Source: Chloroflexota bacterium
GTDB lineage: Bacteria; Chloroflexota; Dormibacteria; CF-121
Assembly: GCA_034666565.1 (NCBI GenBank)
Contig: JAXDLN010000003.1
Location: 474 to 64,473 of the forward strand
Direction of reading: 5' to 3'
DNA length: 64,000 nucleotides
Position numbers and translations under genes: made by a program. Positions 16,785 through 18,898 of the stretch are shown here, piece by piece. The notes beneath the pieces are model-generated. The model was given only the letters and a program-made list of their open reading frames with translations. It was not told the origin of the DNA and searched no databases. Position 1 is the first letter of the stretch; every line of letters begins with the position of its first letter.

Positions 16785-18305
16785 GTGCTTGGGTCTGAGG
16801 TCGATCGGCCGCTGGTCTCCCAGTTCGGCGACGCCTTGCGCCAGACTGGCTACAACGAGGCCGGGCTCCGGCAGGCGGTTGGCACCAGCTCGAGCCTGAG
16901 CCACGATCCGCGAGCGAGCGAGGTCGCGCGCCGACGGCTCGTCCCAGGGAACTCGCTGCACACGCTCATCAAGGCATTCTGCCTCGGGATTCCCGTCCCC
17001 AGGAATGAACTCACCGACGCTGTCGGGGCTGCGACGGTCGACTACCTCGTCCGTCTCGCCATCGTTACCTTGGAGCAGGACACTCTCAGCCCGTTGATCG
17101 CGATCGACGTGGCCCAAGACCTGCTAATCGCCCACGACCCGGCCCAAAGAGGTGAGCCGCTGATGGGTGATCATGTCATCGGTCTCGGCCCGGCCCCGCG
17201 AACCCTGCTAGCACTTACGGTGCGGTTAAGGGCTGGGCGCATGCTCGATCTCGGAACCGGCTCCGGCATCCACGCGCTGCTCGCTCTGAACCATTGCGAC
17301 GAGGTAGTGGCGACGGACATTAACCCAAGGGCGATCGCGTATACCCGGTTCAACGCTGCCCTCAACCGTCTGGCTGTACCGACAACCCGCCAGGGTAACC
17401 TCTTCGAGCCACTGACGGACCAGGCGTTTGACCTCATCGTGGCGAATCCCCCTTATGTCCTCTCGCCGGATTCGACCCTTCATTTCCGCGATAGCGGGAT
17501 GGCCGGCGACGAATTGAGTCGAACCGTGGTGCGAGAGGCCGCTAGTCACCTGGCCGAGGGCGGATTCGCCTCCATTCTCGTCAACTGGGCGCATGGAGAC
17601 GAGGAGGCCGGTCAAGCGCCGCTCGCGGGCTGGGTTCGAGGCATTGGCTGCGATGCCCTGCTACTCCGTTTCCGAACGTACGATCCGCTGACGTATGCCT
17701 CCCTTTGGATCAAGGAAGAGGCCAAGTTTGCCGAAACGCTCGACCGGTGGCTCGGCTATTACCGCCGTCTTGGTATCCGGGCAATGAGCTCGGGGGCCGT
17801 CATCCTTCGTCGCCGGTCCGGGGGCAACTGGATGCGGTCGGCCCGCATGCTGTCAGCTCCGATCCAGGCGGCCTCGCACCATCTGCTGCAGATCTTCGAC
17901 GCCAGCGACCGCCTAGCCCGGATGCCGGATGCCGAGCTGCTCGAACAGAGATTCCGGCCGCGCCCCAGCCATCGTATCCATCGGATCGGCGTGAGCCGTG
18001 GCGGATCGTACGCGGTCGACGGCCAGTACCTCGAAACGATCGGGGGGATCCCGATCCGAGTGTCGCTCGGAGAGTTTGGATCGCGCCTGCTGGGGCGGCT
18101 CAACAGCAATAAGTCGCTACGGGCCGTAACCTCTGAACTCGCCCCGATGCCGGGTATGACGTCGGGCGACATTACCCGGAGTGCCGTTGAGCTGGTTAGC
18201 CAACTGTTTGCATTCGGATTTCTGGAGATCGACGGGTCGGCGGTCGAGCCTCGCGGATTCGTCGTTGGCATCGACAGGAAGGAAAGGAGCCTGGTGACAT
18301 CATGA
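16785..18305 (+). CDS. three-domain class I SAM-dependent methyltransferase (HemK/PrmC-like NPPY type) with C-terminal PqqD/RRE-like peptide-recognition domain
   Basis: motif I LDLGTGSGIHA, acidic loop VATDIN, motif IV IVANPPYV; C-terminal ~90 aa (EFGSRLLGRLNSNKSLRAVTSELA...ITRSAVELVSQLFAFGFLEI) resembles PqqD/RRE winged-helix leader-binding domains. Confidence 0.7.
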   Translation: MLGSEVDRPLVSQFGDALRQTGYNEAGLRQAVGTSSSLSHDPRASEVARRRLVPGNSLHTLIKAFCLGIPVPRNELTDAVGAATVDYLVRLAIVTLEQDTLSPLIAIDVAQDLLIAHDPAQRGEPLMGDHVIGLGPAPRTLLALTVRLRAGRMLDLGTGSGIHALLALNHCDEVVATDINPRAIAYTRFNAALNRLAVPTTRQGNLFEPLTDQAFDLIVANPPYVLSPDSTLHFRDSGMAGDELSRTVVREAASHLAEGGFASILVNWAHGDEEAGQAPLAGWVRGIGCDALLLRFRTYDPLTYASLWIKEEAKFAETLDRWLGYYRRLGIRAMSSGAVILRRRSGGNWMRSARMLSAPIQAASHHLLQIFDASDRLARMPDAELLEQRFRPRPSHRIHRIGVSRGGSYAVDGQYLETIGGIPIRVSLGEFGSRLLGRLNSNKSLRAVTSELAPMPGMTSGDITRSAVELVSQLFAFGFLEIDGSAVEPRGFVVGIDRKERSLVTS

Positions 18306-18898
18306 AGACGCACGACCGGCGGAGCCTGGACGACCGGACGGTAGAGAGCGGCAAGCAAGCAGCAAAGATGCCCAAGCCTCGCCCCGCCAACGTCGAACAG
18401 TCGATCCGCGATCTCCAGGCCACGGTCGGCAACCGTGTGGTGGGCGACCTGATGGCTGGCTCCGGACCCGTCCTGCAAGGAAGCTTTTTTGGCAGCCCGT
18501 TCGGCGGTCTGGAGGGCTGGCTCGGGGAAGATTCCTCCGGGGGTAGGCCGGGTCTCGATCCGGGCAGCAAGGCCGAAGCTGCGGATACCAGCATGAAGGA
18601 GACGCTGTCGGATAATTCCATGAAGGTTGCCGATGCCTCCGAAGAATGGGACGCATCTCAGAAACACGATGCCTCGGACAAATGGGACGCCTCCCAGAAA
18701 CTCGATGCTTCGGATAAATGGGATGCCTCCCAGCAATTCGACGCCTCGGATAAATGGGATGCCTCTCAGAAACTCGATGCCTCGGATAAATGGGATGCCT
18801 TCCAGAAGCTCGATGCCTCGGATAAGTGGGACGCCTCAGAGAAGTCCGAACTGGGGCTAGCGAGCAAAGACGACGAACTGGACTTCAAGGAGTTTTGA
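18302..18898 (+). CDS. repeat-containing precursor-like protein (110-aa leader + six 12-aa repeats DASDKWDASQKL)
   Basis: ATG overlaps MTase stop (ATGA); acidic/Ser-rich; repeats in frame; ends ...DDELDFKEF. Confidence 0.6.
   Translation: MKTHDRRSLDDRTVESGKQAAKMPKPRPANVEQSIRDLQATVGNRVVGDLMAGSGPVLQGSFFGSPFGGLEGWLGEDSSGGRPGLDPGSKAEAADTSMKETLSDNSMKVADASEEWDASQKHDASDKWDASQKLDASDKWDASQQFDASDKWDASQKLDASDKWDAFQKLDASDKWDASEKSELGLASKDDELDFKEF
18631..18846 (+). repeat. 6 x 36-nt perfect-phase tandem repeat inside CDS
   Basis: units gatgcctcggataaatgggatgcctcccagaaactc with few substitutions, each encoding DAS(D/E)KWDA(S/F)(Q/E)(K/Q)(L/F/H/S). Confidence 0.9.

Follow-up and report, generated by a model that had tools for sequence, protein, structure and literature searches.

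What does a methyltransferase do with a repeat protein whose start codon overlaps the enzyme's own stop codon? The question is raised by positions 16785-18898 of a 64,000-nt stretch of DNA (contig JAXDLN010000003.1, GenBank assembly GCA_034666565.1; referred to below, at its full length, as the window) from a soil bacterium of the Dormibacteraeota group. Two open reading frames (ORFs) on the + strand make up the unit. ORF A (16785-18305, GTG start) encodes a 506-aa S-adenosylmethionine (SAM)-dependent N-methyltransferase with the domain order DUF7059 - MTS (NPPY) - DUF7782/RRE (RRE, recognition element for peptides that are made on ribosomes and modified after translation, RiPPs), and ORF B (18302-18898, ATG start) encodes a 198-aa hexad-repeat protein. 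The original prediction put the pair forward as a candidate novel class of RiPP-like module with ORF B as the precursor, and all of the sequence features that it named were verified in place. In our assessment there is about an even chance that ORF A and ORF B are a dedicated enzyme-substrate pair, in which an N-methyltransferase with a docking domain would iteratively methylate the hexads of ORF B, the likelier acceptor being Lys.

The pairing is apparent from the gene arrangement. The stop codon of ORF A and the start codon of ORF B share a 4-nt ATGA overlap (18302-18305), preceded at a spacing of 12 nt by a Shine-Dalgarno (SD)-like AAGGAG (18284-18289), and of the 34 related loci for which upstream sequence is available, almost every one retains this junction (18284-18305, +) as ...ATCATGAAG or ...ATCGTGAAG. 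The proposed ATGA translational coupling is verified, as is the co-occurrence of enzyme and repeat protein: a methyltransferase gene lies directly upstream of ORF B in 34 of these 34 loci, almost always with an ATGA or GTGA overlap, and conservation and coupling of the pair hold at every testable locus. The genes that flank the pair differ by genome, being MEDS and histidine kinase genes in the lineage of the window, a PAS-GAF sensor gene in one other genome, spermine-synthase-like and phosphotransferase system genes in another, and a homoserine dehydrogenase gene in a third. Scans for promoters and terminators gave nothing beyond chance expectation and detected no terminator downstream of ORF B. 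At one locus (L125, 5232-6756), ORF calling split the methyltransferase in two (204 aa, with DUF7059, and 298 aa) upstream of an intact ORF B, the result of either a frameshift or an assembly error. A natural knockout is present in L127 (5564-6331), where a clean deletion in the methyltransferase gene has left its start region and its last ~100 nt, with a recognisable upstream region and SD site. The homologue of ORF B in L127 (P0191) has kept the leader and has lost every K-aromatic hexad together with the conserved C-terminal tail, a pattern that fits a functional dependence of the two genes.

ORF B begins with an N-terminal region (aa 1-110; 18302-18631, +) that has a hydrophilic start, the motif LQATVGNRVVGDL...LQGSFFGxxFGGLExW (core at 18413-18442) and an acidic linker. 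The repeat array follows (18632-18829, +), with 11 hexads DAS(D/Q/E)K(W/L/F), equivalent to 5.5 dodecads and including one DAFQKL unit, and the protein ends in an acidic C-terminal tail (DASEKSELGLASKDDELDFKEF) that is conserved in the alignment (18830-18898, +, including the stop codon). Tandem Repeats Finder reports a 36-nt unit present in 5.8 copies at 18631-18837 (86% matches, score 288). The array and the leader, described originally as six 36-nt repeats behind 110 aa, are real, but the basic unit is the hexad rather than the dodecad alone: aa 111-176 comprise 11 hexads, DAS(D/Q/E)(K)(W/L/F/H), nine of which have the Lys. Sequences of this type include DASDKWDASQKL and DAFQKLDAS. Approximately 70 homologues of ORF B were found, all from soil metagenomes or metagenome-assembled genomes (MAGs) of Candidatus Dormibacteraeota, with lengths that differ in 12-aa steps and with 1 to 16 hexads each. 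In the 611 hexads of 69 homologues, position 1 is Asp in 97%, position 2 Ala in 83%, position 3 Ser in 95%, position 4 Asp, Gln or Glu in 47%, 33% and 14%, respectively, and position 6 Trp, Phe or Leu in 82%; these hexads were located by their in-phase Lys at position 5, so that the count cannot measure the conservation of that residue. A Gln conserved in each repeat, as had been proposed, is contradicted by its frequency at position 4. The invariant residues of the leader include L38, Q39, T41, G43, N44, R45 and V47 (alignment of 19 homologues). A weak match of ORF B to DUF3106 in Pfam (E 0.022, below cut-off) was discarded as low-complexity.

Repetitive DNA can keep reading frames open, and the array is open in its other frames as well, as would be expected were ORF B a non-functional frame over a DNA tandem repeat. 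This explanation is excluded by several features of the gene. The GC content by codon position (0.63/0.45/0.70) follows a coding pattern, the ratio of non-synonymous to synonymous substitution (dN/dS) in the first 110 codons, the leader, is 0.23-0.44 between orthologues, and the differences between repeat units fall mainly at third codon positions (9 of 14 variable sites). The start codon, SD site and overlap are conserved, and the length differences among the ~70 homologues correspond to whole repeat units. Judged by these patterns, ORF B is a real gene under purifying selection.

ORF A has the Pfam architecture DUF7059 - MTS - DUF7782, with all three domains in order. The N-terminal helical domain (aa 21-101; 16845-17087, +) is matched by PF23186 (DUF7059; 1e-7, 32.3 bits against a cut-off of 27) and is common to GenN and AerE. 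The Rossmann core (aa 146-268; 17220-17588, +), with the SAM motif LDLGTGSG and the NPPY of VANPPYV at 17445-17456, is matched by PF05175 (MTS; 3e-14, 53.3 bits). The match to PF25004 (DUF7782) at aa 377-480 scores 17 bits, below the cut-off, and is found in 20 of 23 aligned family members in a colinear alignment. In 26 diverse homologues, D155, G159, G161 and N221-P222-P223, residues of the SAM motif and of NPPY, are invariant. An AlphaFold2 model of ORF A, built on these homologues, has a pLDDT of 87.5 and a pTM of 0.87, and its best Foldseek matches in the Protein Data Bank (PDB) are GenN (3e-22) and AerE (7e-19), with TM-scores of 0.77-0.79 on the target. With its Rossmann fold, GxGxG-type SAM motif and NPPY, ORF A is, at the superfamily level, an N-methyltransferase of the NPPY class. 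The catalytic core had been described as of the HemK/PrmC type, and the Pfam match agrees with this, although the NCBIfam PrmC/HemK models match the core only and score far below their cut-offs (TIGR03534, 63.5 bits versus 199.1). Identification of ORF A as a PrmC/HemK release-factor Gln-N5 methyltransferase was rejected given this shortfall and the absence of GGQ from ORF B. Members of the DUF7059-MTS-DUF7782 family are present in Actinomycetota, Chloroflexota, Planctomycetota, Desulfobacterota and other phyla; literature searches with DUF7059, DUF7782, PF23186 and PF25004 returned nothing.

A catalytic core of this class might instead act on DNA, RNA or a small amine, the last as for GenN, with ORF B as an accessory protein (regulator, inhibitor or acidic mimic of nucleic acids). 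N6-adenine and N4-cytosine methyltransferases likewise have the NPPY motif, the PADLOC model mad2 (MADS) matches aa 143-275 of ORF A at 7e-22, the top structural match is a small-molecule enzyme, ORF B has a net charge of -15, and the module adjoins an integration hot spot. The mad2 match is, however, limited to the generic catalytic core (profile positions 285-405 of 492) and the other MADS genes are absent, on which grounds assignment to the MADS defence system was rejected. ORF A has no DNA target-recognition domain, its extra domain being a peptide-binding fold; the neighbours of the family are genes for proteins and peptides, not restriction or aminoglycoside genes; and the hexads were lost where the enzyme was deleted, in L127. 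We regard a different substrate as very unlikely.

As originally proposed, the C-terminal domain of ORF A (aa ~387-483; 17943-18233, +) is an RRE/PqqD fold; it is a winged helix with a three-stranded beta-sheet followed by three helices and resembles RREs whose structures were determined with a leader bound. PqqD is the top match of the family profile among PDB sequences (E 0.027), and the Pfam PqqD model is matched by 11 of 23 family members, the winged-helix model of the protein-lysine methyltransferase PKMT by five of 23. No description of an RRE fused to an NPPY methyltransferase was found in the searchable literature. Such a domain beside a precursor-like gene is what a true RiPP system would have, in which ORF B would be a multi-core precursor methylated under RRE guidance, the leader would be removed, and methylated hexads or dodecads would be released by a protease encoded elsewhere. 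ORF B, with a conserved leader, a variable number of near-identical units and a position beside the enzyme, has the expected form; AerE and PoyE are precedents for iterative N-methylation, and the fungal GigA/GigC system is a precedent for one precursor that yields several peptides with dimethyl-Lys. RRE-like winged helices are, however, also present in the protein-lysine methyltransferases Rv2067c and PKMT, so that the fold alone is insufficient for assignment to RiPPs. The repeat units are strongly hydrophilic and acidic, nothing that separates them is an obvious cleavage motif, and beyond the array the protein has a conserved C-terminal tail. No peptidase, exporter or second tailoring enzyme is tied to the module within 10 kb in the window or in L004, L123, L124 and L125, nor was an immunity gene found within this distance in four different genomic contexts; a Peptidase_S11 gene adjoins the module in L123 and is not conserved. 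Maturation of ORF B into peptides is therefore hypothetical. The claim of a novel RiPP class is supported in part: the precursor-like gene beside the enzyme, the RRE fold and the homology to AerE are in its favour, whereas the missing protease and exporter, the linkage of most of the enzyme family to contractile-injection genes and the presence of the leader motif in DUF4157-type and other proteins of extracellular contractile injection system (eCIS) loci speak otherwise; we consider a RiPP pathway at this locus distinctly unlikely.

For the enzyme family as a whole the RiPP idea is more alive than it is for the window locus specifically. In L019, the enzyme gene is followed by a gene for a 46-aa acidic peptide (11380-11520, +) with a GG motif and the end ...DVKGG-LWNNPIEKK, an ORF with a weak match to peptidyl-prolyl isomerases (11742-12677) and an ATP-binding cassette (ABC) exporter (12664-15786) with two cyclic-nucleotide-binding domains and a C39 peptidase domain. 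This is plausibly a small RiPP or bacteriocin cluster, the 46-aa product being a GG-leader peptide, and comparable small acidic peptides are encoded in L068 and L074. The family can therefore occur in classical peptide-maturation contexts.

More often, the neighbours of the enzyme are components of contractile injection systems. Of the first two metagenomic homologues inspected (35-40% identity), one is encoded within an eCIS operon that also has sheath, Pvc16, AAA ATPase, eCIS_core and PAAR genes, and the other adjoins a gene for the tube protein Hcp. We then assembled 80 enzyme loci from contigs of one genome per species in GTDB and searched the neighbours with profiles built from these same neighbours; the counts are out of 82. 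At least one specific injection-system marker is present in 47 of the 82 loci, usually within a few hundred bases of the enzyme gene: Hcp in 27 (mostly 0-600 nt away), VgrG in 11, T4 gp19-type tube proteins and ClpV in eight each, TssA in four and DUF4157/eCIS_core in three. The assignments are confirmed by Pfam (e.g. T6SS_HCP, 1e-37). No mention of the enzyme family, or of its association with injection systems, was found in the literature, and its association with tube proteins appears to be new. In a recurrent three-gene unit, a dirigent/allene-oxide-cyclase-like protein (~180 aa) with a twin-arginine translocation (TAT) signal is accompanied by an orphan Hcp (~160 aa) and by the methyltransferase, and further genes of a type VI secretion system (T6SS) are absent nearby (L021, L028, L043, L054, L056, L057, L082, L008, L009, L022 and L029; within ~700 nt of the methyltransferase). 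It occurs in Actinomycetota (Gaiellales, Acidimicrobiia), Chloroflexota and one Dormibacterota MAG. In L013 (2647-3801, -), L016, L020, L025 and L040, gp19-type tail-tube-like proteins of ~345-385 aa are encoded 13-49 nt downstream of the methyltransferase; that of L013 has an apparent twin-arginine signal peptide, and export would be unusual for a tube-like protein.

In a neighbour-joining tree of the enzymes, the clade associated with ORF B groups with L024, L010 and L023, all of which lack Hcp, and the type of partner tracks the phylogeny. Encoded immediately next to these three sister enzymes are proteins that have signal peptides and match no Pfam family. The L024 partner has eight copies of FxK(I/L/W/Y)(D/E), including GDAFNKIEYG, GDLFIKYDGIDGE and ADAFIKLEIA; the L010 partner has four (STFLKIE, STFLKID, SIFRKID and GFHKIDT) and the L023 partner about three. 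This motif is that of the N-terminus of enzyme-linked Hcp proteins, MA-x-D-x-F-(L/I)-K-(I/L/F)-D-G-I, as in the peptide MAFDAFLKLDGITGE. A regular expression for the resemblance between hexads and Hcp had been written after the sequences were seen and was thus circular, and it was replaced by a 7-column position-specific scoring matrix (PSSM) derived from 26 Hcp N-termini only, with a window threshold of 8 bits and 2000 composition-preserving shuffles of each partner protein. With this matrix, the L024 partner has five windows of at least 8 bits (best 20.8 bits; 0 of 2000 shuffles reach five), the L010 partner four (best 18.9 bits; 0 of 2000 reach four) and the L023 partner one (20.3 bits; P 0.0005 for the best score). 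ORF B has three such windows, the best being DAFQKLD at 17.8 bits (P about 0.0005 for the window count). Across the remaining ORFs taken together, the background rate is 0.066 hits per 1000 aa, and only three others have two hits, one of which is an orthologue of ORF B. Measured in this way, the likeness of the hexads to the Hcp motif (DAS-Q-K-L-D versus DAF-L-K-L-D) is real but weaker than in L024 and L010.

These results bear on the acceptor. Because Gln occupies position 4 in only 33% of the hexads and Lys is the sole nucleophile that the hexads have in common with the repeats of the sister partners, the epsilon-nitrogen of Lys is favoured over N5 of Gln. In the enzyme-substrate pair that we prefer, ORF B would be made alongside ORF A by translational coupling, and the docking domain would hold a linear segment of ORF B, either the LQATxGNRxV...LQGSFF motif or the repeats themselves, while the catalytic site would methylate DAS(D/Q)K(W/L/F) hexads in succession, most likely on the hexad Lys and less likely, where a Gln is present, on that Gln. 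The product would be a poly-methylated acidic repeat protein that could remain intact, be cut into peptides or be handed over to a machine for secretion or injection whose genes lie elsewhere. The module would then be a Dormibacteraeota-specific offshoot of a widespread methyltransferase family whose usual neighbours are contractile-injection tube proteins, and in the ORF B sub-branch the partner may have become a protein in which a motif similar to the Hcp N-terminus occurs many times. In a broader and rather speculative form, which we hold to be somewhat unlikely, the DUF7059-MTS-DUF7782 enzymes in general would be docking-guided protein N-methyltransferases that mark the Lys in (D)xFxK(I/L)D of Hcp-type tube N-termini. 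The substrate in the sub-branch would be a stand-alone protein with 4-16 copies, and ORF B would be one such poly-methylated product, functioning as a decoy, a tube-lumen filler, a cargo or the source of a secreted peptide.

The leader of ORF B provides a second connection to injection systems. Its core, LQATxGNRxVxDL...P(V/A)LQG, is a form of the more general motif LQxxAGNRAV, which is present in proteins of 266-282 aa encoded in both of the eCIS operons that hold the enzyme (L001 and L011); the DUF4157 proteins of these operons begin with a degenerate version of it. It is found also in short ORFs, such as P0198, which itself lies 8 nt ahead of an eCIS_core ORF (L121), and it precedes an M35-like peptidase domain and, separately, a peptidoglycan-binding domain. 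From these occurrences, the motif appears to be an N-terminal module that is portable between diverse C-terminal "payloads", and the link to eCIS is no more than suggestive. An exhaustive hidden Markov model (HMM) search of 1.8 billion representative proteins with the ORF B leader gave five matches, namely three family members and two short motif-bearing proteins, so that, by HMM, the leader hardly extends outside the family and just the ~20-residue motif is wider. A word-indexed search with a motif profile returned seven short proteins, a metagenome scan with the motif mostly recovered the ORF B family again, and literature searches with motif strings (GNRAV etc.) yielded just unrelated thrombospondin papers. 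LQxxAGNRAV was rejected as a family-wide docking signal, being present in merely two of ~78 non-Dormibacterial enzyme loci.

ORF B might accordingly be a cargo or tube-associated protein in a satellite of an injection system, with the LQxxAGNRAV region as a loading or trafficking signal, the methyltransferase as a modifier or chaperone of tube-binding motifs, and the machine itself encoded elsewhere in the genome. Consistent with this are the Pfam-confirmed markers in more than half of the enzyme loci, the eCIS and Hcp settings of the first two homologues, the positions of the leader motif in the L001 and L011 operons and ahead of eCIS_core, peptidase and peptidoglycan-binding sequences, and the resemblance of the hexads to the Hcp N-terminal strand. 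Cargo is also known to be loaded into eCIS via disordered, hydrophilic N-terminal regions, for which DUF4157 is optional. Published work, however, reports no conserved signal sequence for eCIS cargo, which leaves the role of the motif conjectural, and the motif is rare in the enzyme loci outside the Dormibacterial group. Nor do injection-system genes accompany the module: none is resembled by the ORFs listed for the 64-kb window, most of which were considered without a Pfam search, and none lies within 10 kb of it in four Pfam-annotated Dormibacterial contexts (L004, L123, L124 and L125). A satellite role is, in our judgement, unlikely.

Several observations count against the enzyme-substrate pair that we favour. 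What the sequences show are the domain folds, the coupling, the co-occurrence, the selection on ORF B and the genomic context of the family; the methylation of ORF B, its acceptor residue, the segment that docks and the fate of the product are inferred. NPPY enzymes methylate nucleic acids and small molecules as well as proteins, and the core is matched by mad2 at 7e-22. As AerE acts without a leader or RRE, homology to it is uninformative with respect to docking. The enzyme tree is a neighbour-joining tree without support values, the resemblance of the hexads to Hcp was noticed before it was tested, and the hexads, with Ser in place of Phe, fit the Hcp-derived motif less well than do the L024 and L010 partners. 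The sister partners have Sec-type signal peptides and not the LQxxAGNRAV leader, so that one docking rule for the whole branch is not evident. Finally, the L127 knockout is a single case that decay of the whole module could explain.

If ORF A does methylate ORF B, the NPPY class would have its first member with demonstrated use of an RRE-type docking domain, bacteria would have their first example of a dedicated methyltransferase translationally coupled to a multi-repeat substrate, and two Pfam domains of unknown function, DUF7059 and DUF7782, would gain a function. In more than half of the loci examined, the family has Hcp, gp19-type tube, VgrG, ClpV or eCIS genes beside it, which points to a post-translational layer of contractile injection systems that has not been described and raises a testable question, namely whether the conserved N-terminal Lys of Hcp is methylated. 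For natural-product mining, the locus is a caution that an RRE together with a repeat peptide is insufficient to call a RiPP.

The surroundings of the module have features of their own. It is bracketed by two partial copies of a tRNA-Glu 3'-end (TAGCCCGTGGCGGA...), one upstream at 16607-16627 (+) and the other at 18959-18977 (+), 60 nt downstream of ORF B, and an intact tRNA-Glu gene is located at 20846-20919 (-). In many Dormibacterial contigs (L102, L103, L088, L093, L111 and L005 among those named), the stretch from ORF B to tRNA-Glu contains short cassettes (335-2300 bp) in arrays that range from 0 to at least 8, and a conserved element of ~27-38 nt, GTAGCCCGTGGCGGACACTAATCGAACA(ATCGAATTGG), always in the same orientation, marks the bounds of each cassette; there are also contigs in which the tRNA gene comes directly after ORF B. 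This organisation suggests a hot spot for integration or cassettes arrayed as in an integron, and no integrase is evident in the annotated flanks. Elsewhere in the window, four paralogous small ORFs (100-118 aa) lie within 13 kb (29761-30117, -; 32600-32902, -; 36270-36614, -; 42517-42864, +) and have in common the segment ...(L/I)(Y/F)T(I/P)S(V/I)ASEIL.(T/L)HPRTLM(M/I)YE...; we guess that they are MerR/HspR-like helix-turn-helix regulators. At 11867-13539 (-), a sortase gene adjoins a gene for a secreted protein of the Ice_binding family (PF11999) with a C-terminal hydrophobic anchor, possibly a sortase-anchored surface protein.

Among characterised enzymes, the best match to ORF A in sequence and structure is the gentamicin 3''-N-methyltransferase GenN (E 2.8e-31 over profile positions 73-290), a match that includes the DUF7059-type N-terminal domain. 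GenN differs in its length of 320 aa, its aminoglycoside substrate, its lack of an RRE and the NSP that it has where the ORF A family has NPPY, and no aminoglycoside genes are present at the ORF A locus. AerE and PoyE, of the proteusins aeronamide and polytheonamide, have a fold in common with ORF A over ~375 residues that comprise the N-terminal helical domain and the Rossmann core (for AerE, TM-score 0.79 on target and sequence profile E 1e-18). AerE iteratively adds five N-methyl groups to Asn side-chain amides of the aeronamide precursor, has no RRE, is leader-independent and accepts D-Asn only, which a radical-SAM epimerase makes (PMC9060474). The ORF A module is unlike this in having a C-terminal RRE, no epimerase and a putative substrate that is a hydrophilic protein of 198 aa with no Asn in its repeats, and a proteusin pathway was rejected since genes for an NHLP-type leader or a radical-SAM epimerase are not nearby and the repeats lack Asn.

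The release-factor Gln-N5 methyltransferases PrmC/HemK and HemK2/N6AMT1 belong to the same methyltransferase core family, with NPPY conserved, but ORF A falls far short of every NCBIfam equivalog cut-off (63 bits versus 199 for PrmC), and its N- and C-terminal domains are different; N6AMT1 also methylates Lys. The protein-lysine methyltransferases Rv2067c of M. tuberculosis and PKMT1/2 of Rickettsia have a C-terminal winged helix, but their catalytic domains are merely distantly similar to that of ORF A (Foldseek TM-score ~0.25-0.36), and we know of no dedicated, translationally coupled substrate gene for any of them. For the C-terminal domain itself, the closest RREs named are PqqD, the lasso-peptide B1 proteins TfuB1 and TbiB1, PbtF and the domains of NisB, LynD and MccB, and the RRE-containing enzymes with which it can be set are MibB, MadB, NisB, LynD, MccB, TigE and TglI. 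ORF B resembles eCIS cargo in its hydrophilic and probably disordered start with the LQxxAGNRAV...(V/L)Q(R/G) motif, and differs from it in the lack of a DUF4157 domain (Pfam) and of injection-system genes nearby. The logic of the module is known in kind, either as RRE-guided tailoring or as a protein methyltransferase with a dedicated substrate, here in the hands of an uncharacterised enzyme family.

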